NCBI GenBank assembly: GCA_041946855.1
Contig: JBHGBE010000003.1
Location: forward strand, 47,662-111,661
Source: Phycisphaerae bacterium
GTDB lineage: Bacteria; Planctomycetota; Phycisphaerae; SM23-33
Reading direction: 5' to 3'
Length of the DNA: 64,000 nt
The stretch's first letter is position 1. Each line of letters begins with the position of its first letter. The notes beneath the pieces were generated by a model. That model worked only from the letters and a program-made list of their open reading frames with translations. It did not search any database and was not told the DNA's origin. The position numbers and the translations under genes were made by a program. This document shows, piece after piece, positions 608 through 59,831 of this stretch.

Positions 608-821
608 CTTGCGCCCGCCGCCTGGCGCAAGGCGTTCCCCCGCCGGCCGATTCCTCCGCGTTATTCCTTGCCCTTGGCCCCGGCGCGCCCTATGATATTC
701 CTGCCGTGCTAGGCGGGGCGCTAGCGGTGCCCTGAGTCCCGAAAGGGATGACCCGCAATCCGCTTCAGCGGGGCCGATATCCGCCGCGGGTTGCTGTCCG
801 CGGGATCATCCGTCTTGCCGG

Positions 822-956
822 CGGCGATGAAGGTTGGGTCCTCTGCAACGTCGTGCCGTGAACCTGGTCAGGTCCGGAAGGAAGCAGCCATAAGCGTGCC
901 AGCGACGTGTGCCGGAGGGTCGCCTGACTGGAGCCGTTCGACCTGGCGGACCCCGT
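822..956 (+). ncRNA. ffs: Signal recognition particle RNA (4.5S/ffs-type)
   Basis: The conserved domain IV motif GGUCAGGUCCGGAAGGAAGCAGCC lies at about 869-892. GCAACG and GUGUGCCGG blocks and the terminal pairing GGGUCC...GGACCC match E. coli 4.5S RNA. The RNA sits immediately upstream of dnaX, as in the conserved ffs-dnaX-ybaB-recR arrangement. The ends are approximate. Confidence 0.75.
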
Positions 957-990
957 GGAAAGCAATTCCAAGCGGAGTGCACGGCATTTT

Positions 991-1117
991 TTGTTGTCGA
1001 TTGACGATTTTCGATTGGCGATTGAACCGCGCGGCCGGCCTCTGGATAATCATCTCCGCGCCGGTTCAAGCGGCGGCATAGGTCAATCGAAAATCGACAA
1101 TCGTAAATCGGCAATCG
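991..1117. repeat. Inverted pair of 7-nt-periodic tandem arrays (GATTGNN units at 991-1027, CAATCNN units at 1079-1117) flanking a roughly 50 bp spacer
   Basis: Direct reading gives tcgattgacgattttcgattggcgattg and, downstream, caatcgaaaatcgacaatcgtaaatcggcaatcg, which is its reverse complement. The element lies between ffs and the dnaX start codon. Confidence 0.8.
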
Positions 1118-4011: not shown

Positions 4012-4016
4012 ACTGC

Positions 4017-4048
4017 CGATTGTAGATTGCAGATTGCAGATTGAACTG
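4017..4048. repeat. 7-nt tandem array (gattgta gattgca gattgca gattgaa)
   Basis: Direct reading shows the array between the convergent recR and XRE genes. Confidence 0.8.
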
Positions 4049-4441: not shown

Positions 4442-6205
4442 ATGTTCCGCCATCCGCAGCGGACGGACGAACTGGTCAGCCGCAGCTATGATCGCATCGC
4501 GAGCGGGTATGAACGCGCGTGGACGGACCACAACCGCGGCCTGTCAGTCGAGATGCTGGACCAGCTCGGAGTCCAGCAGGGCGCGGAATGCATCGACCTG
4601 ACGTGCGGGACGGGGTCTGTGGCCGGCGAGCTCAAGCGGCGCGGTGCCGGCCGTGTCGTCGGCGTGGATGCCTCCGAGGGGATGCTCGCCGAGGCAAGGA
4701 AGAACCACCACGACTGCACGTTCATCCAGAGCGACGCGGTTGACTACCTGCGGTCCTGTCCGGCGCAGAGCGCCGACGTCGTGACGTGCGCATGGGGCCT
4801 GGGCTACACACGGCCGTGGGCGGTCATCAGGCAAATCGCCCGCGTCCTCCGACCCGGCGGCCGGGTGGGCATTATCGACAACGGCCTGTTCTCGCTTGCC
4901 GAGGTGCTTTGGTCGGCGATGCTCGCCTTCGCCGAGCGCCCATCCTCCCTGGCTCACGTGATGAACTTCCGCTTTTTGCCGACCTCCGGCGCGATGGCGA
5001 CACTGATGCGCCTCGCCGGCTTTTCGGTGCGGAGGCAATGGAGCGGCAAGTGGACCTACTTCGTTCGCGACGGCCGGGCGGCCATCGAGCGCCTCACCGC
5101 GACCGGCGCGGCCGCCGGCTTCGAGTTCGCCGCGACGGACAGCGAGCGCGACGCAGTCTTCGACCGCTTCGCCCAGATCCTCGAGGCACGGTTCGCAACG
5201 TCGCACGGAGTGCCGATTACGCATCGGTACATTGCGGCAATCGGGCAGAAGCCGATTTCGGATTTCGGAATTCGGATTTCGGATTCCTGCGGTTGGCGGA
5301 CAAGGCGCCGTGCATGGCAATCCGAAATCCGAAATGGTGGTCGGAGGAATCTCTCGATGAAGGCAGGGCCGCTCTTCAATCTGGCGCGCCTCTGCCGCCT
5401 GTACTACGCAGCGCCCATGTCATTGGCATACCTGCTGACCGTCTACTACGCCCGCGGAGGGGACATGGCCGGCCAGTGGCCCGCCGCGGCCCTTTCGACG
5501 GCCTTGCTGGCGATGGTCATAGCGGGCGGCTACGCGCTCAACGACTACTACGACCGCCGGGTGGACCTCGCCAACGCCCCCGCACGGCCGATACCTGCCG
5601 GGCGGGTCAGCCCGCGCGCCGCGATGCTGACGGGCGTGCTGCTGATAGTGGCCGGCGCAGGCCTGGCGCGGCTGTGCAGCCTGTGGTTCTTTGTCGGCTT
5701 GACGTGGCTTGCCGTGGCGCTGACCGTGTACGACATCCTCTCGAAGCGCCTGGGCCCGGCCAAGCAGGTCGCCGTCGCGGCGCTGATGACGAGCATCTAC
5801 CCGTTGGCGATCGCGCAGGCAGGCACGGCCGCCGGGCCGCGTGCGGCGACGCTGGCGGTCTTCCCCGCGTGGCTGTTCCTGACGAGCCTGGGCTACGAGA
5901 CGCTCAAGGACATCCGCGACGTCTCCGGCGATCCGCTCATCGCCGGCCGGCCCTCGCCCATCCGCCGCAGGCCGGGCATGTGGCGGGCAATCTCCCGCAT
6001 CGCCGTCCTCTGCGGCGCGGCGCTCCTCGTCGGGCCGTTCATACTCGGCTGCAAGTGGGTCTACATGGCCGGCGCGGGCGTCGCGATGGCGCTGGCCGTC
6101 GCTGCCGCCTTCGTCCCCGTGCGGACCGCGATTCGCCTGGTCTACGCGGAGTGCTTCATCGTCGGCCTCGCCGCCGCCTTGGACGTGCTTGTTTTTGGGG
6201 TCTGA
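4442..6205 (+). CDS. Class I SAM-dependent methyltransferase fused in frame to a UbiA-family prenyltransferase
   Basis: The N-terminal part carries a Rossmann methyltransferase motif (IDLTCGTGSVAGEL...VLRPGG). The C-terminal part carries the UbiA motifs NDYYDRRVD and YETLKDIRDVSGD plus several TM helices. The two halves are joined by the 7-mer repeat at 5254-5337. There is no in-frame stop, but an internal ATG at 5357 is preceded by GGAGGA, so separate expression of the UbiA half is possible. The upstream start is uncertain (4358 or 4442). Confidence 0.55.
   Translation: MFRHPQRTDELVSRSYDRIASGYERAWTDHNRGLSVEMLDQLGVQQGAECIDLTCGTGSVAGELKRRGAGRVVGVDASEGMLAEARKNHHDCTFIQSDAVDYLRSCPAQSADVVTCAWGLGYTRPWAVIRQIARVLRPGGRVGIIDNGLFSLAEVLWSAMLAFAERPSSLAHVMNFRFLPTSGAMATLMRLAGFSVRRQWSGKWTYFVRDGRAAIERLTATGAAAGFEFAATDSERDAVFDRFAQILEARFATSHGVPITHRYIAAIGQKPISDFGIRISDSCGWRTRRRAWQSEIRNGGRRNLSMKAGPLFNLARLCRLYYAAPMSLAYLLTVYYARGGDMAGQWPAAALSTALLAMVIAGGYALNDYYDRRVDLANAPARPIPAGRVSPRAAMLTGVLLIVAGAGLARLCSLWFFVGLTWLAVALTVYDILSKRLGPAKQVAVAALMTSIYPLAIAQAGTAAGPRAATLAVFPAWLFLTSLGYETLKDIRDVSGDPLIAGRPSPIRRRPGMWRAISRIAVLCGAALLVGPFILGCKWVYMAGAGVAMALAVAAAFVPVRTAIRLVYAECFIVGLAAALDVLVFGV
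5254..5337. repeat. Inverted pair of 7-nt arrays (cgatttcggatttcggaattcggatttcggattc ... caatccgaaatccgaaatgg), located intragenically in frame
   Basis: Direct reading shows the element at the methyltransferase/UbiA domain junction. Confidence 0.8.
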
Positions 6206-8497: not shown

Positions 8498-8558
8498 GGA
8501 TCACCTCTGGCCGCGCTAGGCGCGCGACGGTACTCTACCGCGCCAAGGGCGCTACTTC

Positions 8559-8677: not shown

Positions 8678-8766
8678 GGAATGCCCCTTGTGATCTTCGT
8701 GCCCTTTGTGGTGAAGCATCCCCGGCCGTTGTCCGATTCTGATTCAAGGCGTAGAATGGAATCGTC

Positions 8767-13680: not shown

Positions 13681-13712
13681 CAATCCGAAATCCGATCTCC
13701 ATAATCCGAAAT
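13681..13712. repeat. 7-nt tandem array (aatccga units)
   Basis: Direct reading shows the array in the intergenic region. Confidence 0.7.
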
Positions 13713-14400: not shown

Positions 14401-14512
14401 CAGAATGCCCAATGTCTAATGCCAAATGTCTAAGGAAGGCCAAAGGGCAAGCGTCTCAATGCTCGCCATCGGTGATTGGTTAGACATTAGGCATTTGGCA
14501 TTAGACATTGAG
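14401..14512. repeat. Inverted pair of 7-nt arrays (AATGNCN units: cccaatgtctaatgccaaatgtctaa ... ttagacattaggcatttggcattagacattg)
   Basis: Direct reading shows a perfect inverted arrangement flanking a 45 bp spacer. Confidence 0.85.
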
Positions 14513-15420: not shown

Positions 15421-15549
15421 GAAAATGGCAGAATGCAAAATGCACAATGAATAAGGCGGAAGTCAGATGATCACTGCACGGCGAGTTCCTGCCTTGACCC
15501 TATGATTCCGCCTCTTGCCTTCTGCACTATGCCTCTTGCCTTCATTTCT
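15421..15549. repeat. Degenerate inverted 7-nt arrays (aatgcaa/ttgcctt units)
   Basis: Direct reading shows them between the convergent isomerase and rsgA genes. The right arm is imperfect. Confidence 0.45.
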
Positions 15550-16696: not shown

Positions 16697-16750
16697 CGAG
16701 CGGGATTATAGCCCCGAAGTGGCGCGGGGGGCAGGGAGGACCGGCGCAAT

Positions 16751-16854
16751 GGAAGACTGGAGGACGGGAGGAAGGGAGGACTAAAGGAAGGGCATCGGTC
16801 TCCAGTAGATTCCTCCTCCCCTCTTCCCTTCCTCCCGTCTTCCCCTCCCTCTCT
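16751..16854. repeat. Inverted purine-rich / pyrimidine-rich low-complexity arms (gggaggaagggagga ... tcctcccctcttcccttcctccc)
   Basis: Direct reading shows them in the intergenic region between rsgA and nfo. Confidence 0.7.
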
Positions 16855-17830: not shown

Positions 17831-17837
17831 GAAGACA

Positions 17838-17868
17838 TTGTGGATTGCGAATTGCGAATTGTGAATTG
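17838..17868. repeat. 7-nt tandem array (gattgcg aattgcg aattgtg aattg)
   Basis: Direct reading shows the array in the divergent nfo/archease promoter region. Confidence 0.8.
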
Positions 17869-17924
17869 AAAAGGCGATGAGAGAAGAGGGAAGAGCGAAG
17901 AGAGGGTAGAATCGCCGGGCAATC

Positions 17925-18476
17925 ATGGCCAAGTCTTGCGAGACATTCGATCACACGGCCGATGTTGGCCTGGCGGCGCGGGCGGACACGCCGGGGGAGC
18001 TGTTCGAGGCGCTGGGCGAAGGATTGGCCGATTACATCTGCCCGCGCACGACCGTCCGGCCGCGCGAGAAGCGGACACTGACGGTCGAGGCCGAGGACGT
18101 CGAGGCGTTGGCGGTCGATTTCCTGGCGGCACTGCTCAACGTGATTCAGGCGGACAGGTTCATGGTGACGGCCGTGAGCGTCATGGAGTGCGGCGGCACA
18201 GTCGCGCAGCGACACGGCGCCGCTCTGGCTGGCGCCGATGAAGGTGATTCTCCACGCAAGAGAGACTCGGCCGGTGCAGCCAAAGCGGTGTCGCGTCCCT
18301 TCGGGACTTTGCCACCGCACTCCAAAGTCAAAGTGACGGCCGAGTTGACGGGTGAGCCGTTCGATGCGTCCCGCCACGAGATTCACACGGAGGTCAAGGC
18401 CATCACCTACCATTTGCTGAAGGTTTCGCAGGAGCAAGACGGCACTTGGATAGGCCGGGTGATACTGGATCTGTGA
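17925..18476 (+). CDS. Archease (RtcB activator) carrying an in-frame palindromic-element insertion
   Basis: The N-terminal FDHTADVGL, EAEDVEALAVDFLAALL and the C-terminal EVKAITYH are archease hallmarks. The segment MECGGTVAQRHG...PPHSKV is encoded by palindromic element copy 2. Confidence 0.8.
   Translation: MAKSCETFDHTADVGLAARADTPGELFEALGEGLADYICPRTTVRPREKRTLTVEAEDVEALAVDFLAALLNVIQADRFMVTAVSVMECGGTVAQRHGAALAGADEGDSPRKRDSAGAAKAVSRPFGTLPPHSKVKVTAELTGEPFDASRHEIHTEVKAITYHLLKVSQEQDGTWIGRVILDL
18183..18326. repeat. GC-rich palindromic element, copy 2 (inside archease, in frame)
   Basis: The termini ATGGAGTGCGGCGGCACAGTCGCG ... TTTGCCACCGCACTCCAAAG match copies 1 and 3. Confidence 0.8.
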
Positions 18477-18525: not shown

Positions 18526-19985
<1,460 letters not shown>

Positions 19986-19989
<4 letters not shown>

Positions 19990-20167
19990 TTGACGATTTA
20001 CGATTGCCGATTCAGAGCCGCAACTCCCCTTCGCCTCGCCCGGCGCAATCATGTTCAATGCCCTTGCAAAAACCGGCCCAGCGGATAATACTGGTTCGAT
20101 TGTGCCTGCGGCGACGGCGCCGGTGGGCCGTGTGAATCGTCAATCGACAATCGTCAATCTGCAATAG
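19986..20167. repeat. Inverted pair of 7-nt arrays (gattgacgatttacgattgccgattc ... gaatcgtcaatcgacaatcgtcaatc) flanking a roughly 115 bp spacer
   Basis: Direct reading shows the pair. Confidence 0.85.
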
Positions 20168-22740: not shown

Positions 22741-22813
22741 GGGTAGGTAGCTCAGCTGGTAGAGCGCGGCACTGAAAATGCCGAGGTCGCCGGTTCAATC
22801 CCGGCCCTACCCA
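22741..22813 (+). tRNA. tRNA-Phe (anticodon GAA)
   Basis: The cloverleaf runs from the acceptor stem GGGTAGG, through the D-arm TAGCTCAGCTGGTAGAGC, the anticodon loop CTGAAAA and the T-arm GGTTCAATCC, to ...CCCTACCCA. Confidence 0.9.
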
Positions 22814-25377: not shown

Positions 25378-25518
25378 CAGAAGGCAAAAGGGGCGAGGGA
25401 CTAGCGACCAGGTGTCGCGGAGAGCGCTCACGTCTCGCATTCCAGCCGAACATCGATACCCCAAGTCGCTAATCGCTAATCCCTAGTCCCTTGCCCTCCA
25501 TGGCCATATAATTCCGGC

Positions 25519-26331
25519 ATGAACGCCAAGCTCCTCCGCGAACTCTTGGTCCAGGTTTCCGCCGGGCGGATGGATGTCGATGCGGCCGTGGCGCGGCTGC
25601 GGCACATGCCGTTCGAGCAGGTGGGCTTCGCCAACATCGACCACCACCGGGCGATCCGCTGCGGCTTCCCGGAGGTGATCTACTGTCCCGGCAAGTCGAT
25701 CGAGCAGATCGTAGGCATCTTCAGTCGCCTCGCGGCCGCCAGCGCCAACGTGCTGGCCACGCGTGCGACGCGCGAGGCGTATCAGGCCATCGCGGCAGAA
25801 CATCCCAAGGCCGAGTTCCACGAGTTGGCGCGTGCGATCACGCTGCGCCAGTGCGACCACAAGCCTGTGGGCCACATCGCGGTGGTGACGGCCGGGACGA
25901 GCGACCTTGCCGTGGCCGAGGAGGCCCGCGTGACGGCCGAGATCATGGACCAGCGCGTGACGACGCACTACGACGTGGGCGTGGCCGGCCTGCACCGGTT
26001 GCTCGCCCGGAGCGAGCAGCTCCAGCAGGCCAACGTCATCGTCGTGGCGGCCGGCATGGAGGGTGCGCTGGCCAGCGTGGTCGGCGGCCTGGTGGCGGTG
26101 CCGGTGATCGCCGTGCCGACCAGCGTGGGCTACGGCGCGAGCTTCGGCGGCCTTGCGGCCCTGCTGACCATGCTCAATAGCTGCGCATCGGGCGTGAGCG
26201 TGGTGAACATCGACAACGGCTTCGCGGCCGGTTACATCGCGGCGATGATAAATCGGCAGACGGCAGGCAACGGGCAACGGGCAACTGGCAACACAAGAAA
26301 GCAACAAGTGCGAAGGGGACGGAACGCATGA
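25519..26331 (+). CDS. larB: Nickel-pincer cofactor biosynthesis protein LarB-like (PurE/AIR carboxylase-related)
   Basis: A PurE-like fold (HIAVVTAGTSDLAVAEEA...VIVVAAGMEGALASVVGG) with an N-terminal extension is typical of LarB. Confidence 0.65.
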   Translation: MNAKLLRELLVQVSAGRMDVDAAVARLRHMPFEQVGFANIDHHRAIRCGFPEVIYCPGKSIEQIVGIFSRLAAASANVLATRATREAYQAIAAEHPKAEFHELARAITLRQCDHKPVGHIAVVTAGTSDLAVAEEARVTAEIMDQRVTTHYDVGVAGLHRLLARSEQLQQANVIVVAAGMEGALASVVGGLVAVPVIAVPTSVGYGASFGGLAALLTMLNSCASGVSVVNIDNGFAAGYIAAMINRQTAGNGQRATGNTRKQQVRRGRNA

Positions 26332-30217: not shown

Positions 30218-32078
<1,861 letters not shown>

Positions 32079-32080
<2 letters not shown>

Positions 32081-32200
32081 TTGTGGATTGTGAATTGTGG
32101 ATTGTGGATTGTGTATTTCCCCGTGCCAGCATTGACCCGCGGATAGCCGGCCGAGCCCGTCGATGGAAATCCACAATACGCAATTCACAATTCACAATAT
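32079..32200. repeat. Inverted pair of 7-nt arrays (gattgtggattgtgaattgtggattgtggattgtg ... cacaatacgcaattcacaattcacaat)
   Basis: Direct reading shows the pair between hscA and fdx. Confidence 0.85.
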
Positions 32201-34913: not shown

Positions 34914-36517
34914 GATGGTCTCCTTGAGTAGAGTGTCGGTTGTCTGTCGCCGGGGTGGAGAATCGCCCGCAGGAAGCTGCGTGCGGCTATCGCCGTGCCC
35001 CGCCTGAAAAGCGCCATGTTCACCCGCCGCTTGCGCCTGTCGCGCTGGCGGAACATCTGCGCCAGCAGGACCGCCGCCCGCCGCCGGCCGGGCTTAAGAG
35101 ACAGCCGCCAGTAGACGCTCTCAAGTTCGCGCAGGCCCATGGACTCGGTTCGGCAGACGGGCGTATGAAAATTGTAGCTGGCCAGGTCCTCGTTGGCCAC
35201 AAGCCCTTCGCGGAGGGCGTTTTCGGCGACGGCCGTGCCGGGGTTGGGCGTCAGCGGCATGATGAAGCAGTAATCCATCCCCATGCGGTACTGGCAATCG
35301 ACCAGCCGCATGAGGTCCTCGCGCGTGTCGCCGGGAAGGCCGAAGATCATCGTGCCGATGGTGTACACTTTGGGATGCCGCTCGCGGAGGATCGCGAAGG
35401 CCTCGGCCGACACGTCGGCGGAGTTGTTGTGCTTGCCCAGCGCCGCCAGGCCCGCCGCGTCGTCCCGCTCGACGCCGATCATCACCTGCCGCAGCCCGGC
35501 GCGGACGAGCTTGTCGAGCACGCCGAGCTTCTGGTCGCGGATGATGCCATCGGCCCGCACCCAGGCGGTGTGAAGCGTCCGCGGTTGGCCGCGGCCGTCC
35601 ATCATGTCCGAGCAGAGCATCAGCTCTGCCCATCGGTCGGACCAGGCGGGCGAGCCGTTGAACGTCGGGTCAACCCAGCCGAACGTCCGCCGGCCGAAGC
35701 GCCGGTGGAGCCACGCCACCTCCTCGAAGCTGCGCTGGGCGCTCTTTGTGCGGTACACCGGCCGGACCCGCCCGTTGTTGTCGATGCTGCTGCCCATCTG
35801 CTTCCAGAGGATGCAGAAGTTGCAGTTATCGGTGCAGCCGCGGGAGTGCTCGACGCTCACAAGCGCCGGGTGGTTCCGCGAAGAGCGGCCGTAGAGGGAC
35901 ATGTCGAGCAGGACATACGCGGGCATGGGCAAGGCGTCCATGTCCTCGATCAGGGGCCGGGCGGGGGTGATGACAAGCCCGCCCGACGAATCCCTGAATG
36001 CGATGCCTGGGATCGTTGCCCACCTCGCGCGATCGTGCAGGTTGCGGAGCAACTCGACAAACGTCGCCTCCCCCTCGCCGCGGACTATGACATCTACTGA
36101 GCCGGGCTCGCCCGCGGCGCATTTGGAATTTCGGACCGAAGCTCCCTTCGGGATTGCGGATTTCGGACTGGCGCCAAGCGTACCCTCGATTGCATGCGCA
36201 AAGTACACGCCGCCCGCCACTACGACGCAATCCGGCCAGAGCCGCTTGACCAGGGCGGCCGCCCGGATCGCCTCGTGTGCGCTGACCGTCTCCTCGCCGA
36301 CGCCCAGCACGTCGATCCGCTCCGCCGCCAGGCGCTGCTCAAGTGTCCGCCACCCGCACTTCTGGCCTGGGCAGTCCCACACCTCGACCTGGGCTCCCGG
36401 CATGTCCCGCAGCACGGCCGCCGCCAGGCACAGAAGGCCCAGCGGCTGCCAGAATGCGGAGGTCTCGCTGTTGAATGGCCAGACGTATCGCGGCGGCCGA
36501 AGGAGCAGGATCCGCAT
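34898..36517 (-). CDS. B12-binding domain-containing radical SAM protein
   Basis: An N-terminal cobalamin-binding domain is followed by the radical SAM motif CNFCILW. The 7-mer repeat at 36121-36172 is in frame within the B12 domain. Confidence 0.8.
   Translation of the reverse strand: MRILLLRPPRYVWPFNSETSAFWQPLGLLCLAAAVLRDMPGAQVEVWDCPGQKCGWRTLEQRLAAERIDVLGVGEETVSAHEAIRAAALVKRLWPDCVVVAGGVYFAHAIEGTLGASPKSAIPKGASVRNSKCAAGEPGSVDVIVRGEGEATFVELLRNLHDRARWATIPGIAFRDSSGGLVITPARPLIEDMDALPMPAYVLLDMSLYGRSSRNHPALVSVEHSRGCTDNCNFCILWKQMGSSIDNNGRVRPVYRTKSAQRSFEEVAWLHRRFGRRTFGWVDPTFNGSPAWSDRWAELMLCSDMMDGRGQPRTLHTAWVRADGIIRDQKLGVLDKLVRAGLRQVMIGVERDDAAGLAALGKHNNSADVSAEAFAILRERHPKVYTIGTMIFGLPGDTREDLMRLVDCQYRMGMDYCFIMPLTPNPGTAVAENALREGLVANEDLASYNFHTPVCRTESMGLRELESVYWRLSLKPGRRRAAVLLAQMFRQRDRRKRRVNMALFRRGTAIAARSFLRAILHPGDRQPTLYSRRPSWYDD
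36121..36172. repeat. 7-mer/hairpin element (aatttcggaccgaagctcccttcgggattgcggatttcggac), intragenic and in frame
   Basis: Direct reading shows the element. It encodes EGTLGASPKSAIPKGASVRNSKCAAGEPG, inserted in the B12-binding domain. Confidence 0.65.
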
Positions 36518-36547
36518 AGGGCGCCCCAATCCGTTTACGCAATCATA

Positions 36548-40873: not shown

Positions 40874-41839
40874 CTACTCGCGGTCAGGCCATTGGCCCGA
40901 GAACACCTCGACCGCCGGGCCGGTCATGTACACGCGGTTGTCGGACTGCCGCCATTCCAGTTCCAGTCCGCCGCCGGGCAGGTGGGCGACGATCCGCCGG
41001 CCGGTCCGCCCGGTGAGCACGCCCGCGACGCAGACGGCCGATGCGCCGGTCCCGCAGGCCAGCGTCACGCCGCTGCCGCGCTCCCACGTCCGCATCGTCA
41101 CTTCGCTCGCGGATTGCACCTGGACGAAGTGGACATTGACCCGCTTCGGGAATACCGGGGCGCGCTCGATAACAGGGCCGACCATTTCCAGGGGCACCGC
41201 CGCCACATCCTTGGAGTAGATCACCACGTGCGGATTCCCCATTGAGACGCAGGTCATGCGGGTAATCGGTGAATCGGTCAACTGGTCAATCGGTGAATCG
41301 GTGAATCGCTTGACCGGGGAACCCTCGACCATGGCCCCCCGACTAACCGATTCACCGATCAACCGATCAACCCTGACGTACTTGTCAAGCGGCAGGTCCA
41401 CTATCTTGTCCAAGGACTCAGCGCCCGGCAGCACGACGGGAATGTCGGCCGGCTTGAGCACCGGCTCGCCCATATCAACCGTGGCTGCCGTGACCTTGCC
41501 GTCGGGACCTAGCCTCAGGTCGATGGTCTTGACGCCGCTGGCCGTCTCGACGCGCATCGGGTTGGCCCGCGACAGTCCGTGGTCGTATGCGTACTTGGCC
41601 AAGCACCGGATGCCGTTGCCGCACATGAGGCCCTCGGACCCGTCGGCGTTGAACATCCACATGCGGACGTCGGCGGTGCGGCTTGGCATGATGAGGATCA
41701 GGCCGTCGGACCCGACGCCGAAGTGCCTGTCGCTGACCGCCCTGGCCAGCGCGGAGGCGCCCTTCGGGTCGATCTGCTGGTTGAAGCAGTCGACGTAGAC
41801 ATAATCGTTGCCCGCGCCTTGCATCTTCGTGAAGCGCAT
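40874..41839 (-). CDS. dapF: Diaminopimelate epimerase carrying an in-frame 7-mer repeat insertion
   Basis: GAGNDYVYVD, the catalytic Cys motifs MCGNGIRC and ACGTGASA, and SMGNPHVV are present. A roughly 33 aa insert encoded by 41262-41378 sits where E. coli DapF has about 9 aa. Confidence 0.9.
   Translation of the reverse strand: MRFTKMQGAGNDYVYVDCFNQQIDPKGASALARAVSDRHFGVGSDGLILIMPSRTADVRMWMFNADGSEGLMCGNGIRCLAKYAYDHGLSRANPMRVETASGVKTIDLRLGPDGKVTAATVDMGEPVLKPADIPVVLPGAESLDKIVDLPLDKYVRVDRLIGESVSRGAMVEGSPVKRFTDSPIDQLTDSPITRMTCVSMGNPHVVIYSKDVAAVPLEMVGPVIERAPVFPKRVNVHFVQVQSASEVTMRTWERGSGVTLACGTGASAVCVAGVLTGRTGRRIVAHLPGGGLELEWRQSDNRVYMTGPAVEVFSGQWPDRE
41262..41378. repeat. Inverted pair of 7-nt arrays (aatcggtgaatcggtcaactggtcaatcggtgaatcggtgaatcg ... 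aaccgattcaccgatcaaccgatcaacc) inside dapF, in frame
   Basis: Direct reading shows the pair. Confidence 0.85.
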
Positions 41840-44561: not shown

Positions 44562-44708
44562 GAGCTTGCTCCTTACCGCCTCGGCGCCGTACCCGTTGAC
44601 ACTGACCGGCGGGCATTCTCACGCGCGCCGGGGCAATAGGCAAATAAAAACCGCTAAAGGCGAAGTCTTCCGGAAAGACGAAGTCGTCCGGCGTTAGTGG
44701 GGAGGAGA

Positions 44709-44912
44709 ACACGGATTTCACGGATTCCTGGGATTTCGTGCAGGCGCGTCTGACGGACCAGCGGCTTCGCCGGGGGTCACGCGGAGACAAGAATCAAGCA
44801 TGAAGGGCCGTATCTCTCGGTCTCATGTCTTCCTGCTGGGTCAATCCAGGGGCTCGCACCGGATCGCCAACAACACTCCATGAAATCCCCCCGAATCCGT
44901 GAAATCCGTGTT
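44709..44912. repeat. Inverted pair of 7/8-nt arrays (acacggatttcacggattcctgggatttcgtg ... catgaaatccccccgaatccgtgaaatccgtgtt) flanking a roughly 130 bp spacer
   Basis: Direct reading shows the pair in a divergent promoter region. Confidence 0.85.
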
Positions 44913-45009
44913 CCCTTGTCCGGTGTGCGCCTGGCCGGGCGCCAATATCGAATCATTTGGGAAGGACCACCGGCCGATATTAGAATGAGTTGGTTGTGAA
45001 GGAGCCTGC

Positions 45010-46785
45010 ATGATTGTCGTGCATGTGACGCACGAGGCGGTTGAGAAAGTTGGCGGCATCGGGGCGGTCATAGCGGGGTTGATGACCGCAAAGTCTTACG
45101 AGCAGTCTGTCTCGCGCACGGTCCTTCTGGGACCGCTACTTACCACTGACAAGCCGGTAAACCTGCGGCTGGGCGAGGGCGGCCACGTCATCTACAGCTC
45201 GCTGGACGCAGTCTACACGCCGCCGTGGCGGGAGAAGTTCCTGCCCATCGAACGGACCTACGACGTCGGGATCATCTACGGCACGCGCAAGGTCCACGAC
45301 CCGTGCTGCGGGAAGACCGTGGACGCCGAGGTGCTCCTGATCGACGTCTTCCACGCCAACAAGAACAGGCTCAACCTGTTCAAGGGGGAACTGTACAGGA
45401 AGTTCAACGTTCCCAGCGCCGACTTCGAGAAGATCTGGGAGTACGAGCAGTACGTCCGCCTGGCGGAGCCGGGTTTCGAGGCCCTCAAGGCCATCGGGTG
45501 CAACGGCGGCTCGCAGCAGGTGGTCATACTGGCGCACGAGTACATGGGCATGCCCGTCGCCCTGAAGGTCGTGCTGGCCGGTTCCGCCAACACCCGCACC
45601 GTGTTCTACGCCCACGAGGTGGCGTCGGTCCGCCCGATCGTCGAGAAGACCCCCGGCCACGACACGATGTTCTACAATGTCATGGTTCAGGCGGCCGCGG
45701 AGGACAAGACGATGGAGGAGATATTCCCCAGCGTCTTCAACAACTATAAGCACGCGCTTGTCAAGGCCGCACGGTACTGCGACCACGTGTTTGCCGTGGG
45801 CGACTATATCGAGGAGGAGCTTCGGTTCCTGGACCCGCACTTCCGGACGATGGACATCGACCTGGTGTACAACGGAGTGCCCGCCTTCCCGCTGGCGATG
45901 GCCGACAAGAAGGCCAGCCGGGCGAGGATGCGCGCCTACTCCAGGAACCTGTTCGGGCGCGAGCCGACGTGGATATTCACGCACGTCTGCCGGCCGGTGC
46001 TTTCCAAGGGCCTGTGGCGCGACCTGCGCCTGCTGCACGAGCTTGAGCCGTACCTGGCCCAACGCGGCGAAACGGCCGTCTACTTCCTCCTGGGCACCCT
46101 CGCCGGGCAGCGCCGGCCGCAGGACATCCGCCACATGGAGCGAGTCTACGGCTGGCCGGTCTCCCACGAAAAAGGCTACCCCGATCTATGCGGCGGCGAG
46201 GAGGAGCTCGGCTCGATAATCAACTACTTCAACCGCGACCACCGCTGCACGCGCGGCGTGCTGGTCAACCAGTGGGACTGGAACCAGCGGTTCTGCGGCG
46301 AGCGGATGCCCGCCGACATGACCTTCGCCGACATCCGCTGCGGCACGGACGTCGAGCTGGGCATGAGCATCTACGAGCCGTTCGGGATAAGCCAGTTCGA
46401 GGCGCTGTGCTTCGGGGCGATCTGCGTGGCGTCGAACATCTGCGGGTGCATGGGCTTCGCCCGCAAGGCGGCCGGGCTTGCCCGGTTCGAGCCGCCGGAT
46501 GACCCCGACGCGCCGCTGCCGTGCCCGAACATCATTGAGGCCAACTTCCTCAACGCGGGCAACCTGTCCGTCGAGAAGCTGCTGGCCCTGTCCATCGAGG
46601 ACCGCGACAAGATCGAATCGGCCGAAGGGGCCCGCATGGCCAGGGCGCTGATCCGAGCGCTGCCCCGCAGCGACAAGGAGATGGAGGCGCTCATCGCCTC
46701 CGGCTACGAACTGGCACAGAAGATGAGTTGGGAACATGTCGTCCAGGACTACTTCCTGCCCAGCCTCGGACGCACCGTTCAGTAG
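45010..46785 (+). CDS. Glycogen synthase-like glycosyltransferase (GT3-like)
   Basis: The N-terminal VVHVTHEAVEKVGGIGAVI resembles the GT3 glycogen synthase motif (EVAWEVANKVGGIYTV). The fold is GT-B-like. The call is moderate. Confidence 0.45.
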   Translation: MIVVHVTHEAVEKVGGIGAVIAGLMTAKSYEQSVSRTVLLGPLLTTDKPVNLRLGEGGHVIYSSLDAVYTPPWREKFLPIERTYDVGIIYGTRKVHDPCCGKTVDAEVLLIDVFHANKNRLNLFKGELYRKFNVPSADFEKIWEYEQYVRLAEPGFEALKAIGCNGGSQQVVILAHEYMGMPVALKVVLAGSANTRTVFYAHEVASVRPIVEKTPGHDTMFYNVMVQAAAEDKTMEEIFPSVFNNYKHALVKAARYCDHVFAVGDYIEEELRFLDPHFRTMDIDLVYNGVPAFPLAMADKKASRARMRAYSRNLFGREPTWIFTHVCRPVLSKGLWRDLRLLHELEPYLAQRGETAVYFLLGTLAGQRRPQDIRHMERVYGWPVSHEKGYPDLCGGEEELGSIINYFNRDHRCTRGVLVNQWDWNQRFCGERMPADMTFADIRCGTDVELGMSIYEPFGISQFEALCFGAICVASNICGCMGFARKAAGLARFEPPDDPDAPLPCPNIIEANFLNAGNLSVEKLLALSIEDRDKIESAEGARMARALIRALPRSDKEMEALIASGYELAQKMSWEHVVQDYFLPSLGRTVQ

Positions 46786-46884
46786 GTCCCCGGCCGCCGG
46801 AAGGCGTGTTTCCTCATTCTGGCTTTTGCCTTCCGCACTGTGCGCTCTGCCTTTCTGTTAGAATCCAGGAAGGCAGAGCGCGGA

Positions 46885-49032
46885 ATGCGGAAGGCGAAAG
46901 GAAAATCGAACGGCGGATTGCGGACGGCGGAACGCGGACGCGCGCCTGCATTCCTGGCCGCTGCCGTCGTGACCGTCGCGGTCGTCGCGGCATACTGGAA
47001 CAGCTTCGGCGGCTCGCTGCTCTTCGACGACCGGGCGTTCATCCTGAAGAACCCCAACATCGGCAAGCTCTGGCCGCCGGGCGAGGCATTCGATCACCTC
47101 TGCGCCGCCATGCGGCCGACCGTCGATTTCACATTGACGCTCAACTGCATATTCAGCAAGGCGGTTGACACGGGCCTGGATGTCCACAAGCACCAGCCTG
47201 GCTACCACGAATGGAGCTACCACACCGTCAACCTGGTCATCCATCTGCTGGCGGCGCTGACGCTGATGGGGATCGTGCGGCGGACGCTAATGACGCCGAA
47301 GATGATCGGCCGGTTCGGCCGGGCCGCCTTCTGGCTCGCGCCGGCCGTCGCCGTGCTGTGGGCGGTACACCCGGTCCAGACCGAGTCGGTCACCTACATC
47401 ATCCAGCGGGCCGAGTCGTTGATGGGACTGTTCTACCTGCTGACTCTGTACTGCGTGATACGTGGCGCTGGCGCAACGCGCGAAGACGCGAAAAGGGGAG
47501 GAGGGGAGGAGGGGAGGATTCCGGACACGAGACCGGCCCGTCTTTCCTCCTCTCCTCCCGTCCTCCCGTCCTCCCGTGCTTCGGCCCCCCGGTCCTCCCG
47601 AAGCTCGGCGTGGTACATCCTTGCCATCACCGCGTGCGCGCTGGGAATGGGCAGCAAGCAGGTGATGGTGACCGCGCCTCTTGTGGTGCTGGCCTACGAC
47701 AGGATGTTCCTGGCCGGGTCGTTCGGCGAGGTCTTCCGCCGGCGATGGAGGCTCTATGCCGGCCTGGCGGCCACGTTGGGCATCGTGATTGCGCTGCTGG
47801 CTGTCTACCCCACGGGCGAATCCGTCGGATCGGCGCTGGCGGCGTCGGGCATCACGCCTATCACCTATGCGGCGACGCAGTTCGGCGTCGTCGTCCACTA
47901 CCTGCGCCTGGCGGTCTGGCCCCATCCTCTGTGCCTGGACTACGGCTGGCCCGTGGCGGGCACGCCATGGGCAGTCCTACCGCCGGCATTGCTCATCGTC
48001 GCCCTGCTCGGCCTGACGGCCTGGGCGCTGGCCAAGGGCAGGCCCGCGGGCTTCGCTGGCCTGTGGTTCTTCCTGATCCTCGCCCCTACCTCGACCATCC
48101 TGCCGATCCAGGACCTTATCTTCGAGCACCGCGTGTACCTGTCACTGGCGGGCGTGATCGCGTTTGCGGCCATTGGCGGATACTGGCTGGCGACCTTGCT
48201 GGCAGGCCGAATGAGCCGGCGGAGGGCGGGCCAAGGCAGCCAGTCGTCCGGTCCCGCACAGTCCGAAATCCGAAATCCGAAATCCGAAATCGCCTCCACG
48301 CCCCGCGCCGTTCGCATAGGGTGCATCGCCGTGACCACGGCTCTGGTAATTGTCTTCGTCGTCCTGACCCATCTCCGCAATCGCGCCTACGCCGATGACG
48401 TGGCGATGTGGTCGGATGTGGCCGCCACCCACGGCCATCACGCCCGCGGCCACTACCAGTATGGCAAGGCGCTGTCCAACCTCGCCGACGACCTGGCCGC
48501 CGAGAACAGGGCGGGCGATGCGCAGCGAGTCTATCGCCAGGCCGCCGATGAGTACCGCGCGGCCGTCAGGATCGACCCGAACTACGCTGACGCCCACTAC
48601 AACCTGGCCAACATGCTCCTCCAGCGGCCCCACGAGCGTGACCCGCAGGCGCGGAAGAGGGATCGGGAGGAGGCCAAGGAACACTACCGGCAGGCGTTGC
48701 GAGTGTGGCCCACCCGCGCCGAGGTCTGGGACAACTGCGGCATCGCCTACTACCTGGACGGGCAGTTCGACGAGGCGATCCCGCGCCATCGGAAGGCCAT
48801 TGAGCTTGATCCGCATTTCGCCAACCCGCACAACAACCTGGGCGTCGTGCTGATGGCGAAGGCGCAAGGAACCGCCGACCCGGCCCTGAGGAAGTCACTT
48901 CTGAACGAAGCCCTGAGGAACTTCGAAGGGGCCGCCACATTGCCCAAGGCCAGCGGTGACATCGCCAAGGTTCGCCGCAGCGCGGAGGCCAACGCCCAGG
49001 AGGTCCGCCGCCTTCTTGCCTCCTCACCCTAG
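46885..49032 (+). CDS. TPR-repeat membrane protein (DUF1736/TMTC/PMT-like N-terminal TM domain plus C-terminal TPRs)
   Basis: AYWNSFGGSLLFDD is followed by multiple TM helices and C-terminal TPR repeats (AHYNLANMLL, AEVWDNCGIAYYLDGQFDEA, HNNLGVVL). Two low-complexity repeat elements are in frame. The start is uncertain (46840 or 46885). Confidence 0.6.
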   Translation: MRKAKGKSNGGLRTAERGRAPAFLAAAVVTVAVVAAYWNSFGGSLLFDDRAFILKNPNIGKLWPPGEAFDHLCAAMRPTVDFTLTLNCIFSKAVDTGLDVHKHQPGYHEWSYHTVNLVIHLLAALTLMGIVRRTLMTPKMIGRFGRAAFWLAPAVAVLWAVHPVQTESVTYIIQRAESLMGLFYLLTLYCVIRGAGATREDAKRGGGEEGRIPDTRPARLSSSPPVLPSSRASAPRSSRSSAWYILAITACALGMGSKQVMVTAPLVVLAYDRMFLAGSFGEVFRRRWRLYAGLAATLGIVIALLAVYPTGESVGSALAASGITPITYAATQFGVVVHYLRLAVWPHPLCLDYGWPVAGTPWAVLPPALLIVALLGLTAWALAKGRPAGFAGLWFFLILAPTSTILPIQDLIFEHRVYLSLAGVIAFAAIGGYWLATLLAGRMSRRRAGQGSQSSGPAQSEIRNPKSEIASTPRAVRIGCIAVTTALVIVFVVLTHLRNRAYADDVAMWSDVAATHGHHARGHYQYGKALSNLADDLAAENRAGDAQRVYRQAADEYRAAVRIDPNYADAHYNLANMLLQRPHERDPQARKRDREEAKEHYRQALRVWPTRAEVWDNCGIAYYLDGQFDEAIPRHRKAIELDPHFANPHNNLGVVLMAKAQGTADPALRKSLLNEALRNFEGAATLPKASGDIAKVRRSAEANAQEVRRLLASSP
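47494..47578. repeat. Inverted purine/pyrimidine heptamer arrays (ggggaggaggggaggaggggagga ... tcctcctctcctcccgtcctcccgtcctccc), intragenic and in frame
   Basis: Direct reading shows the arrays. Confidence 0.8.
48262..48292. repeat. 7-nt tandem array (tccgaaa x4), intragenic and in frame
   Basis: Direct reading shows the array. It encodes SEIRNPKSEI. Confidence 0.8.
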
Positions 49033-53088: not shown

Positions 53089-53937
53089 GCCGCGAGATGA
53101 GGGCGAGCGATGCACGAGGCGAGTATATCGCCGCCGCTCGGGCGGCTTCAACTTCCGCGGCGATGAAGCGCAAGTGCTTCGCGCGCATCCGCGTCAAGCC
53201 GAAGCATAAAGCGCCGGCCGGATTTTCCCCGGCGCAACGTTCAGCGCCGCCGTGCGTTGGGCAGGCGCGGGCGCGAAGCCTCAAGTTTTCCCGCCCGCGC
53301 GCCGATAAATGCGGTGGTATAATGGCGGTGGAAAAGTGAATAAGAGTTGATCACACGCCTCTGCCGTGCCCGGCGGGCGCGTCATGTGAAAAGAACCGAT
53401 AAACCCATTAAGGGAAGCCTGGTCCGAATCGCTCCGGCGGTTGGCAGCTACCCACTTGAACTAATGGGTTCTTTCTCCTGACCGCCACCGGCATTCGCGG
53501 AGGCTTCTTTTTGCGCACACGGCTGAAGGGCTTCGACAGCGGAGGTACCTGAGGAACGGAGGGAGACTACCTGCGTGTCGCGGTAGTCCGAGGTCCTGGC
53601 TGCCGAACGAGGCCGCCAAATGCGGCAGGGCCATTATACTTGCCTCAGTTCCTCCGGTTCCTCCGTTGTGAGAAGAAACCGATTACAGTCCCAAAGCCCC
53701 GGCACCTGGGACAGTCCCCGCGCCGGCTTTTCGCTTGAAAAATCCCGCGCCTCGCCGCCATAATGCTTCGTCTGGCTGGGCCTTGACCCGCCTTGGCGGG
53801 TCGTGTTGCGCACAGGCCCCAGACGTGCGAGCTATCATGGAGGATGGATTTCGGCCGGACTGCCCACGGATGGACGGCAGGTGGATGCTTCCTCGCTTCT
53901 GTGCTTTTTGCCTCGGCCGTGATGCGGAGCAACGGAC

Positions 53938-56900
53938 ATGCGTTGTTACGTCGGGATTGACATAGGCGCGGTCAGCGCCACGGCGGCCCTGCTGGTGGAG
54001 GGCGACGGCGAGGGCCTGCTGGCGCGGTTCGGCGGCCAGTTCGCGGAGGCGGATGCGGCCGTGCCGGGTCGCCGCCTGTACCTCAGCCAATATCGCCGCA
54101 CCAAGGGTAAGCCCCTGGCGGCCGCCACGGAACTCCTCGAGCAGATCATCGCCGCGCTGGGCGCTGACGCCGTAGCGGGTATCTGCATGACCGGCAGCGG
54201 CTCGAAGCTGGCGGCCGACAAACTCGGCTCGGCCGTCGTCAACGAATTCAAGGCCATCGCGGCGGGCCTGTCGGCGGTGGGGTGCAATCCACGGACGGTC
54301 TTCCAGATGGGCGGGGAAAGCTCCAAGTACCTGCGCCTCTCGCGCGGCGGACCCGGCTCGCCGGAGGTCGGCATCGTCGATTACTCCACCAACGGGGATT
54401 GCGCCGCCGGGACAGGCTCGTTTCTCGACCAGCAGGCCGGGCGGCTGAAGTTCGCCGTCGAGGACATCGGGCGGATCGTGCTGGCTGCCGACCGTGCGGC
54501 CCAGGTCGCCGGGCGGTGCAGCGTGTTCGCCAAGAGCGACATGATCCACGCCCAGCAGAAGGGCTACACGCCGGCCGAGGTGCTCCGCGGCCTGTGCAAC
54601 GCGGTGGCGCGGAACTTCAAGACCGCCGTCGTGCGTTCGCACCCGGTCGAGGCGCCGGTGGCGTTCATCGGCGGCGTGGCGGCCAACGCCGCGGTCGTCC
54701 GCGCCATGAAGGAGATGTTCGACCTGGGCGATTCCGATTTCATCGTGCCCGCGGCGTTCGCGCACACGGGCGCGATAGGGGCGGCCGTGGCGGCCTCAAA
54801 GGCGCAGGCGCCGGTCGGCCTGTCGCGCATGGGCGAGCTTCGGGCCGCAAGCGACACCGCGCACGGCGCATTCCCCCGCCAGGCGCCGCTGGTGATGGAC
54901 AACGTGCTGCTCCTGCGCGACCGCGTCGACGCCTACGAGGCGCCCTACGGCGACCAGAAGATCGACGCCTGCCTGGGCCTCGATGTCGGCAGCGTCTCAA
55001 CGAACGTCGTGGCCGTCGACGAGGACGGCCGGGTCATCAAAGAGATCTACGTCCGCACGCAGGGCCGGCCCATCGAGGTAGTGGCCGATGCGCTGGAGGA
55101 GGTCCGGCGCGAGTGGGGCGAGCGGCTCAACATCCGCGGCGTGGGCACCACCGGCAGCGGGCGCGAGCTGATCGGCGAGCTCGTCGGCGCGGACACGGTC
55201 AACGACGAGATCACCGCCCACAAGACCGGCGCCATGTCGGTCGGGCAGAAGATGCTCGGCGGCCGCGTGCCCGACACGATCTTCGAGATCGGCGGGCAGG
55301 ACGCGAAGTTCATCTCGCTCCAGGACGGCATCGTCGTGGACTTCACGATGAACGAGGCGTGCGCGGCCGGCACGGGCAGCTTCCTGGAGGAGCGGGCCGA
55401 GGAGCTGGACATCTCCATCATCGGCCAGTTCGCGGAGATGGCGCTTTCCAGCCCCGCGCCCATCCGCCTGGGCGAGCGATGCACCGTGTTCATGGAGCGG
55501 GACGTCAACAGCTACCTCCGGCGCGGCGCGAACAAGGCGGACCTGGTGGCGGGCCTGGCGTACTCGGTGGTCTACAACTACATCAACCGCGTGGTGCGGG
55601 GGCGGAAGATCGGCGACTGCATCTTCTTCCAGGGCGGCACGGCGTACAACGACGCCGTGGCGGCCGCGTTCTCGGCCGTCACGGGCAAGCAGATCATCGT
55701 TCCACCGTACAACGGCGTCATCGGCGCAATCGGCGCGGCGCTCCTGGCGTGGGACAAGATGAACGGCAATTGCCGATTGCCGATTGCCGATTCTCGATTG
55801 GCCGGCGGAGGCAACGGTGACAAGGCCGCCAAGACTTTGAAAGATGTTCCGCCAGACGGTGGCAGGAACCTGGGCGTCTACGTCTCCGAACTGGCGAAGG
55901 CGGCTGGAGCGACGAGCAATCGTCAATCGCCAATCGTCAATCGCCAATCTCGTTTCCGCGGCTACGACATGTCCAAGGTCGATTACAAGCTGCGGGAGTT
56001 CATCTGCAAGGGCTGCTCCAACGCCTGCCAGATACAGGAATTCGACGTCGAGGGCGAGAAGACCTACTGGGGCGACAAGTGCTCCGACCGCTACCGTAAG
56101 CGGGCCAAGGCCGCGACCAAGCCGGTCATCGAGGACCTGCTGGCCCTGCGGATGAAGCTGCTGCTCGATGAGTCGGCCCTGCCGCCCGCGCCAGCGGCCG
56201 CGCCCGCGGTCGGCATCCCCATGACGATGTTCGCGTGGGAGACGCTGCCGTTCTGGCGGACGTTCCTGGCGCACTGCGGCTATCGCACCGTCCTGTCGGA
56301 CCAGACCAACAAGAAGATCACGCAGGCCGGCCTTGAGAGCGTGGTGGCCGAGCCGTGTTTTCCCATCATCGTCGCCCACGGGCATGTCCTGGACCTGGCC
56401 GGCAAGGCCGTGGACTTCATCCTGCTGCCCAACACGCTGTCGATGGAGACACGCTGGCTGTACACCGAGTCGCACCTGTGCCCCTGGCACCAGACGATGC
56501 CCTTTGTCATCCGCCAGGCGCCGGCCATCCAGGGGCACAGCGCGAAGTTCCTCGCGCCCACTGTGCGCTTCCGCGAGGGCCGCGGGAACGTGCTGAAGGA
56601 GCTTGGCGAGTACTTCGCGCCGCGGGGCATCTCCTACGCCGCGCTGGAGCGCGCGGTGACGGCCGGGTTCGAGGCGCAGGACAAGTTCCGCGAGGCGGTG
56701 CTGGCCGCCGGACGGCAGGCACTCGAGGCGCTCGACCGCGCCGGAGCGCCGGGGATCGTCCTTGCGGGCCGGCCGTACAACGTGCATGACGCCGGGGTCA
56801 ACCTCTCGGTGGGGCGCAAGCTGCGGGATACGTACGGCGTCAACTGCGTGCCGATGGACTTCCTCGACACGGCCGGCATCGACGTCCGCGACATCAACGA

Positions 56901-57180: not shown

Positions 57181-57304
57181 ACGGCAGCGGCTGTAATTCG
57201 TAATTCGTTGACTCGATACTCCGTGGCAAGTCAAGCAACTGTGGCTAGCGAACGGATCAGCGAGGTAACGGGTTTACGCCGTTCGTGATTGAAAGGGCAA
57301 CCAC

Positions 57305-59719: not shown

Positions 59720-59728
59720 AAGGAAATG

Positions 59729-59831
59729 ACGAATATCGAACAGGGAATATCGAACATCGAACTTGACTCAGACCTGAGAAGGCATCATCACTTCGTTATT
59801 CGAGATTCCCTGTTCGATATTCGATATTTCC
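59729..59831. repeat. Inverted pair of 7-nt arrays (gaatatcgaacagggaatatcgaacatcgaac ... gttattcgagattccctgttcgatattcgatat)
   Basis: Direct reading shows the pair between the convergent fumC and ROK-kinase genes. It could act as a bidirectional terminator. Confidence 0.85.

Follow-up and report, generated by a model that had tools for sequence, protein, structure and literature searches.

The window analysed here is a 64-kb stretch of DNA with a base composition of 65% GC, taken from a Phycisphaerae (Planctomycetota) metagenome-assembled genome (MAG). One of its genes is dapF, which encodes diaminopimelate epimerase. The window DapF is identical to the NCBI protein P0001, which is annotated as intact. 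Directly before the conserved strand MTCVSMGNPH, the dapF gene contains a foldback, in which an array of short tandem units is followed by a spacer and then by the same units inverted. Related arrays are found throughout the window, both between genes and in frame within several others (Table 1). The dapF segment is probably one copy of a class of simple-sequence foldbacks that is spread across the lineage, that usually sits at the 3' ends of genes and that has been trapped within genes only as copies that passed a survivor filter.

Repeats were detected with TRF together with an inverted-repeat listing of the window, and the excess of arrays was judged against local shuffles. The count is 21 arrays or array pairs: 13 have an inverted partner and 8 stand alone. 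In the recurrent layout, ~4-5 tandem units (7 or 8 nt each) are followed by a spacer of 8 to ~155 nt and then by the inverted units. Period-7 arrays were observed 12 times against 0.1 expected and period-8 arrays 5 times against 0.17 expected, and the same scan found no arrays of periods 4-6 or 10-11 in the window. Copies per array are mostly 3.3-5.6 by TRF (range 2.3-5.6, with one octamer array at 7.0). Typical units are GATTNNN/NNNAATC, and variants with 8-, 9- and 14-nt units also occur. Every locus has its own unit, and nearly all period-7 units possess an AT-rich core, AAT(C/T)NNN or its complement NNNRATT. Spacers differ between loci as well as units, and the copies have no sequence in common. 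No conserved palindrome common to the copies, the criterion for REP and REPIN elements, was found, and RAYT was not searched for. Rfam contains no family matching any foldback element of the window. Ten paired elements were folded as RNA and form hairpins of 25-35 bp, with z-scores of -2.4 to -8.9 and nine of the ten at or below -3.4.

The majority of the elements lie outside genes. Positions were assessed on a gene map called roughly from open reading frames (ORFs), GC content at third codon positions (GC3) and Rfam hits. On this map genes cover ~90% of the window and ~10% is non-coding. Fourteen of the 21 elements are intergenic, for which the binomial P is about 1e-9 given a window that is ~90% genic, and 10 of these 14 start or end no more than 40 nt from a stop codon or an RNA 3' end. 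Two elements have a TGA stop embedded in their first unit (19988 and 32079), and gaps between convergent genes are almost exactly filled by two elements. Canonical terminators composed of a hairpin and a T-run are not enriched over shuffled sequence (9 vs 11.9 expected and 12 vs 11.1 expected), and none of those in the window is located at a gene end.

An earlier note on this DNA had described a single kind of inverted heptamer element lying in frame at five loci: dapF, a CoA-activase, a methyltransferase-UbiA ORF, a B12-radical SAM protein and a TPR protein. Tandem units are present at or near all five of these places and are free of stops in the host frame, but they are not the same element, since each locus has its own unit. 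Not all of them are heptamers either, as the units in dapF and at 47472-47600 are 8 nt long by TRF.

In dapF, the units are octamers and the second array is the inverted complement of the first. The note had estimated ~33 added amino acids (aa) ahead of SMGNPHVV; the extra segment is indeed there, at a size of 117 nt or 39 codons. The insert, VDRLIGESVSRGAMVEGSPVKRFTDSPIDQLTDSPITR, occurs in 0 of the 117 closest homologues (alignments of 17 and then 117 sequences), which are 61-67% identical by BLASTP and mostly 278 aa long. The stretch between DMG and SMGNP measures 35-60 residues in 44 Planctomycetota genomes vs 74 in the window. In the genome L065 this distance is 89, from an unrelated 18-nt x3.6 tandem repeat in the same loop (L065:10433-10624). 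The insert amounts to a gain of 39 aa over short-loop homologues and of ~21 aa over the closest homologue, P0002. Because P0002 has an 18-aa loop at this site, the boundaries of the element are not those of a clean insertion. No target-site duplication is seen flanking 41262-41378, and no second copy of the dapF unit exists within the window. The copy may have come by insertion or by local growth.

The codons of the dapF element have a GC3 of 0.65 vs 0.89 in the remaining gene. On the coding strand, the host frame is the sole open frame, and the TGA and TAG variants of the unit all fall out of frame. The sense RNA of the element folds into a hairpin of -62.3 kcal/mol (z -5.8), and the other strand reaches -50.5 kcal/mol. 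AlphaFold, given an alignment of 118 sequences, returns a confident DapF fold that agrees with solved DapF structures, with a mean predicted local distance difference test score (pLDDT) of 86.6 and residues 164-189 below 50. The encoded peptide is most likely a tolerated disordered loop without a function of its own. Among DapF homologues in the alignment, P0047, P0026, P0010 and P0059 stand out by odd C-terminal tails, such as DRETGGPGDRGTG and SRRRRGPRSRG, or, in the case of P0059, by an internal 15-aa duplication. These tails and the duplication may come from repeats at the 3' end of the gene.

The insert in the radical SAM protein lies in the cobalamin-binding domain, in frame, as the note had reported for 36121-36172. 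It is wider than that and contains no inverted pair, being composed of same-orientation AATCCGN units around a short palindrome, CCGAAG..CTTCGG. The site falls outside the PDB alignments and was placed by a scan of metagenome homologues. In 29 of 30 such homologues (56-69% identity), a single residue separates ...TL(R/A) from G(R/C)VDVIVRGEGE; the window carries 23 aa in its place. L096 carries an insert of its own at that turn, in which (CAGATAC)n lies within 48-nt repeats (L096:1834-2031). The product of a translated heptamer array, ISNLKSP x5, is found in the L120 homologue at another place, past the position that corresponds to window aa 167. The radical SAM gene that adjoins the CoA-activase gene in L081 was considered as an orthologue and rejected at 25% identity.

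The PMT-like/TPR ORF is a single gene, because its homologues cover 83-98% of the ORF. It contains two elements, both in frame and stop-free as had been claimed, although the second is a solo array with no inverted partner. GC3 in the ORF frame is high on either side of each element and falls within them. Both lie in loops whose length varies and which many homologues have in a short form. In the first loop, a similar, homologous purine/pyrimidine hairpin is present in the closest homologue, P0242/L084 (43% identity). In other Planctomycetota (P0245, P0249-P0252, P0255, P0258, P0264), these two loops contain another translated palindrome, whose peptides are GTVPFFA...GEKGDCPP and GQSPFS...AKKGTVP. 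This suggests that the PMT/TPR loops repeatedly accept repeat insertions. Other lineages have unrelated repeat insertions at the sites used in the window, in L065 at the DapF loop, in L096 at the radical SAM turn, and also in the PMT loops.

The CoA-activase element is located between the second BcrAD domain and DUF2229, as assigned by Pfam. The note had taken the element to form the linker of a fusion protein, but the linker is native. All 119 homologues (119/119; 1027-1142 aa) have two BcrAD domains and DUF2229, and because they share this architecture the element did not create the fusion. The linker is 87 aa long in the window vs a median of 60 in the 119 homologues, with the arms giving ~12 aa each. 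The arms flank a native motif, LGxY(I/V)SEL, in all cases, and the motif is also found in repeat-free homologues. The arms are thus not one contiguous insertion. L081, L082, L085 and L086, which come from other samples, have their own heptamer pairs at the same linker site. The closest homologue, L087/P0122 (75% identity), is without arrays, as are P0123 and P0125.

The two arms change together. Both arms are built of GATTGCG in three genomes and of GATTGAC in a fourth. In the window the left arm has GATTGCC and the right arm GATTG(G/A)C, which leaves one mismatch per unit. In the window copy, the long-range hairpin is not the minimum-energy fold. When the arms are aligned by hand in heptamer phase, 84.6% of cells pair and 9 of 35 pairs are changed on both sides, in a comparison of five sequences whose repeated units are not independent observations. 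None of 500 shuffles reached 9/35 (0/500), and slid controls collapse. The note had named homologous peptides at the same positions in orthologues as evidence against insertion, and this partly applies, since peptides derived from such elements occur in orthologues at this CoA-activase site. Their DNA has heptamer pairs too, so the segment remains an element, though an older or recurrent one. The dapF, radical SAM and PMT/TPR segments are additions relative to most homologues.

The claim that an element joins the methyltransferase and UbiA halves of one ORF is borne out by homologues. Of 1.84 billion representative proteins, none but that of the window covers both halves. Methyltransferase homologues (~297 aa) end at query residue 299, which corresponds to nt 5254, the first base of the element, and UbiA homologues (~277 aa) start near query residue 339-341. 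In the syntenic relative L083, which has the gene order RecR-methyltransferase-UbiA, the halves are two separate genes with a 13-nt overlap. The methyltransferase ends as ...GCKP* in L083 and as ...GQKP running on into the element in the window. The element sits in what was an intergenic gap, with the upstream stop lost. The ATG at 5357 is probably still the start of UbiA. Read in the +1 frame, the element leads to a TGA overlapping this ATG (ATGA; 5254-5360). Since the +1 frame stops there, one extra heptamer would give two coupled genes again. An assembly error in copy number is possible for this one case. The wider proposal of the note, that the elements may be fusing neighbouring genes, therefore holds for methyltransferase/UbiA only. 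One translated array, (GGCAACG)x3.9 at 26266-26292, was missing from its list.

All seven intragenic arrays keep the host frame and contain no in-frame stop, as the earlier note had it for those on its list. Since a unit of 7 or 8 nt takes in every reading frame within three copies, stop triplets must be absent from the units for an array to be translatable. Of 42 frames in the seven intragenic elements, 34 are open vs 18.5 expected from composition, and five of the seven elements have no stop in any of their six frames. For the 14 intergenic elements the figure is 30 of 84 vs 26.6 expected, so that stops occur at about the chance rate. Because intergenic frames are open at chance, the family is not adapted for coding, and the intragenic copies are a filtered subset. 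This result, together with the lack of any shared sequence or peptide, does not support the selection for translatability that the note had proposed by analogy with Rickettsia palindromic elements (RPEs).

The repeat class spans the lineage and is not peculiar to this MAG, because a 23-kb locus of the related genome L081 holds ~20 arrays with period 7, 8 or 9 (L081:4210-18754). Several of these lie 3-18 nt past stop codons (4210 and 13318). Comparable arrays are present at other Planctomycetota loci, often directly past a stop. The neighbours of 80 dapF loci from other Planctomycetota show no conserved synteny, and the radical SAM, TPR and CoA-activase genes were not recovered among them.

Table 1. 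Repeat elements of the window, their host genes and the RNA genes, with positions counted from the first base of the window.
Feature	Position	Strand	Context	Basis
dapF, diaminopimelate epimerase, 321 aa	40874..41839	-		PDB phmmer E=3.8e-73; Pfam DAP_epimerase on both halves
In-frame 117-nt foldback, 39 codons (aa 154-193)	41262..41378	-	dapF	TRF, inverted repeat, RNA fold
dapF element, arm (AATCGGTG x5.6)	41264..41308	+	dapF
dapF element, spacer (36 nt)	41309..41344	+	dapF
dapF element, inverted arm (AACCGATC x3.5)	41345..41372	+	dapF
In-frame 23-aa insert (ASPKSAIPKGASVRNSKCAAGEP)	36107..36178	-	B12-binding domain of radical SAM gene 34898-36529	Pfam, alignment
In-frame purine/pyrimidine octamer pair (AGGGGAGG x3.1 ... 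TCCTCCCG x7)	47472..47600	+	loop of PMT-like/TPR gene 46840-49032
In-frame solo array (TCCGAAA x4.3)	48262..48291	+	second variable loop of PMT-like/TPR gene 46840-49032
CoA-activase left arm (GATTGCC-type x4.6)	55766..55800	+	linker of CoA-activase gene 53938-57180	TRF, linker alignment
CoA-activase right arm (CAATCGN x4.7)	55917..55952	+	116-nt spacer encodes native motif LGVYVSEL
Element (GATTTCG x4.6 ... AATCCGA x2.4)	5254..5337	+	fills former methyltransferase-UbiA gap; read through in ORF 4358-6205
UbiA cistron, probable, independent	5357..6205	+	in-frame ATG, GGAGG 8 nt upstream
Solo array (GGCAACG x3.9)	26266..26292	+	C-terminal tail of AIRC-domain ORF 25519-26331, directly after AIRC domain (ends aa 249)
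Intergenic pair	994..1117	+	10 nt past SRP RNA 3' end (704-984), upstream of dnaX	TRF, inverted repeats, Rfam, RNA fold
Intergenic solo array	4014..4043	+	~3-6 nt past stop of recR-like gene 3412-4011
Intergenic solo array (AATCCGA)	13682..13712	+
Intergenic pair, 14-nt units AATGCCAAATGTCT	14404..14509	+		TRF, inverted repeats, RNA fold
Intergenic pair	15422..15540	.	between convergent genes; ends 2 nt before stop of 15542-16696(-)
Intergenic octamer pair	16735..16848	-	23 nt past stop of 16871-17932(-)
Two unpaired arrays (ATTGCGA, GAGAGAA)	17844..17904	.	divergent 5' region
Intergenic pair	19988..20159	+	first unit overlaps TGA stop of 18526-19989
Intergenic solo array	25466..25491	+	upstream of 25519
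Intergenic pair (GATTGTG x5.6 ... AATTCAC x4.4)	32079..32198	+	overlaps TGA stop of 30218-32080
Intergenic pair, 9-nt units	44707..44913	.	between divergent genes
Intergenic hairpin	46823..46900	+	38 nt past stop of 45010-46785
Short array	57193..57208	+	13 nt past CoA-activase stop
Intergenic pair	59722..59831	.	between convergent genes; fills gap; 3 nt and 1 nt from two stops
Signal recognition particle (SRP) RNA gene	704..984	+
Transfer RNA (tRNA) gene	22741..22813	+
6S RNA gene	53355..53507	+

Two further features of the window are recorded here. Sigma-70-like hexamers (TTGAAC, 17 nt, GATAAT) are present at 1022-1050, inside the loop of the element that precedes dnaX (994-1117). A second palindromic family of ~120-140 nt has a conserved sequence and two copies, at 8558-8678 and 18184-18324, with the termini TGGAGTGCGGCGGCACAGTC...GACTTTGCCGCCGCACTCCA. 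It has no Rfam match above threshold.

The explanation considered probable here begins with a foldback of ~4-5 tandem 7- or 8-nt units, typically GATTNNN, followed by a spacer and the same units inverted. Its usual place is the gap just past a stop codon or an RNA gene, where the transcript would fold into a 25-35 bp hairpin. This hairpin may mark or protect RNA 3' ends in a genome without terminator enrichment, as its position suggests. The arrays would grow and change in place by replication slippage. As the unit drifts, the arms would stay complementary, and either selection acting on the hairpin or templated repair from one arm to the other may be responsible. Arrays could then come to lie within genes by two routes. 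In one, the array arises in or is copied into a loop or linker that tolerates changes in length, as may have happened in dapF, radical SAM, PMT/TPR and CoA-activase. In the other, the stop in the first unit is lost and the upstream gene reads through, which would account for methyltransferase-UbiA and the AIRC tail. Purifying selection would keep only those arrays that lack stop triplets and whose total length preserves the frame. Because of this survivor filter, the in-frame, stop-free property would be explained without any coding adaptation.

Several observations weigh against this explanation. The position statistics rest on a rough, home-made gene map based on ORFs and GC3. The elements are strongly associated with 3' ends, though with exceptions, a few of them (44707-44913, 17844-17904) being located between divergent genes. 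U-tracts are absent from the hairpins, whose role at 3' ends is suggested by their position. Eight arrays have no inverted partner. Hairpin stability shows no consistent bias to the transcribed strand, the result being mixed. In dapF, all 117 nt, including the spacer, are without a counterpart in homologues, which looks more like insertion than growth in place. The searched collections contain no sister strain or empty site, and the best DapF match has 67% identity among proteins and 62% among genomes. Finally, five genomes keep a hairpin at one and the same CoA-activase site, and a homologue with 43% identity keeps one in its PMT loop; such persistence could reflect selection on the intragenic hairpin rather than neutrality.

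Such selection is the basis of an alternative in which the intragenic hairpins are functional. They could act as mRNA structures that slow ribosomes between domains, as an RNase III or other regulatory site, or as the source of a selected flexible linker peptide. In addition to the persistence of a homologous hairpin in the PMT loop and the two-sided changes at the CoA-activase linker site in five genomes, the greater stability of the dapF hairpin on the sense strand (-62.3 vs -50.5 kcal/mol) would fit this alternative, as would the location of the CoA-activase element exactly between two domains. However, the closest CoA-activase homologues (P0122/L087, P0123, P0125) manage without arrays, and the window copy is mismatched in every unit and does not have the hairpin as its minimum-energy fold. 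The peptides differ completely between genomes, and the dapF insert is unique to this genome and modelled as disordered. The covariation could also be produced by templated repair or concerted slippage, and the units are not independent. A selected function is thus unlikely to explain the intragenic copies.

It is quite unlikely that the segments are RPE-like mobile palindromic elements (non-autonomous and similar to miniature inverted-repeat transposable elements) that insert in genes and have evolved an ORF for tolerance by the host. In-frame palindromic insertions of this type are established for Rickettsia RPEs and Coxiella QMITE1 (PMC10969869). The segments in the window are palindromic, ~80-190 nt long, in frame in five genes and missing from most dapF, radical SAM and PMT homologues; the dapF insert is also contiguous and has a composition unlike that of its host gene. 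A mobile family, however, is at odds with copies that share no sequence, with arms that are locus-specific tandem units, and with the existence of solo arrays. There are no alignable copies in the window and no target-site duplication at dapF, and a transposase was not searched for. Moreover, the CoA-activase arms flank a native coding motif, and intergenic copies contain stops at about the chance rate. Artefact or decay, meaning MAG assembly errors in the inserts or their copy numbers, or host genes that are pseudogenes, is very improbable. Short tandem repeats are easily misassembled from short reads, a heptamer gained or lost moves the frame by one, and at methyltransferase/UbiA the +1 frame ends at a TGA on the UbiA ATG in a fusion found in no other genome. 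Against this, random errors would not be expected to leave seven intragenic arrays all in frame without stops, both conserved halves are intact in every host protein, and in-frame arrays of the same kind are present in the independent assemblies L081, L082, L084, L085, L086, L096 and L120.

Other candidates were rejected. Sequence-specific protein binding sites do not fit, as the units differ between loci beyond a loose AAT core. An intein or intron was rejected on size and on the lack of any such signature. In bypass elements, such as those of T4 gene 60 and the mitochondrial byps, ribosomes skip a hairpin insert, and neither frame nor stops are constrained. Translational bypass was rejected here because all seven intragenic arrays are in frame without stops, as would be expected only if they are translated. 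G-quadruplex formation was rejected for most units. G3 tracts are lacking in most of them, and only 16735-16848 and 47472-47600 are G-rich; without G-tracts, a quadruplex cannot explain most units.

Of the longer simple-sequence repeats, heptamers alone are found in excess in many bacterial genomes, and their role is unknown (PMC4060949, PMC4692102). Among known kinds, the window elements come closest to the paired heptameric simple-sequence repeats of Xanthomonas (GGGAATC) and Nostoc (GGGGA(T/C)T). These consist of ~4 units and lie near stops, and each genome has 70-75 pairs in convergent orientation (Rehm et al. 2015, PMC4692102). The window elements likewise have tandem 7-nt units with an AATC/GATT core at ~4 per array, a non-coding bias (14/21), positions <=50 bp from or overlapping stops, and opposite-strand stem-loop pairs (13). 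They also occur as in-frame copies in conserved enzymes and in a gene fusion, whereas PMC4692102 reports coding copies only as under-represented. Unlike the Xanthomonas and Nostoc repeats, most of their units have no G-tracts, the units are locus-specific, octamer, 9-nt and 14-nt variants occur, and the host is a planctomycete. The presence of these traits in a planctomycete without G-quadruplex potential weakens the quadruplex explanation of such repeats and favours a hairpin or slippage.

The cyanobacterial short tandemly repeated repetitive (STRR) units CCCCAGT, TTGGTCA and CAACAGT (Mazel et al. 1990) are reportedly genome-wide consensus sequences. To our knowledge, STRRs have not been described as obligate inverted pairs or translated inserts. 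The unit of csR4 from Nostoc PCC 7120, ATTGCGA, is identical to that of the window array at 17844-17868, and both are intergenic tandem heptamers (ATTGCGAATTG; STRR, PMC2408588). In marine Beggiatoaceae, TAACTGA repeats have a fixed unit in 2-6 copies, lie mostly upstream of starts and contain stops in all frames (PMC4679880). Like the window elements, the Beggiatoaceae repeats are abundant intergenic heptamer arrays near gene boundaries, and a few of them run over ORF ends. The Beggiatoaceae repeats differ in having a single fixed unit and in being nearly all direct repeats (one indirect).

In the account of Ogata et al. (2000) given in PMC10969869, RPEs are families with conserved sequence and peptide that are regarded as mobile, ~100-150 nt long and in frame in housekeeping genes. 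The window elements resemble them as in-frame, hairpin-forming palindromes in unrelated genes; in the AlphaFold model of DapF the core is confident and the insert has a pLDDT <50. Unlike RPEs, they have no shared sequence or peptide, are built from tandem units, are mainly intergenic and have no coding capacity as a family. The REP/BIME/REPIN elements of proteobacteria, as presented in PMC3733652 and PMC3116915, share a conserved palindrome of 20-40 nt bearing a GTAG or CGTC end, and RAYT transposases are associated with them. Both are short intergenic hairpins clustered past genes, with proposed roles in termination or mRNA 3' stabilisation, but the stems in the window are tandem repeats with no conserved sequence. 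The searched open-access literature contains no prior description of such elements in Planctomycetota.

The foldbacks of this lineage would be a natural example of how non-triplet repeats enter conserved enzymes, in which only stop-free, frame-keeping arrays in permissive loops persist. Within a coding linker the two arms co-evolve, and in one case a repeat has apparently merged two genes. The arrays cause spurious-looking inserts and fusions in MAG annotation, and they mark insertion-tolerant sites in DapF, B12-radical SAM enzymes and CoA-activases. A further proposal, which we regard as rather improbable, is that the foldbacks are maintained in ORFs as cis-acting RNA structure by compensatory changes between species, and that slippage in copy number acts as a reversible switch that fuses and separates genes or truncates and extends C-termini. 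If true, such a switch would amount to phase variation of gene architecture in free-living Planctomycetota.

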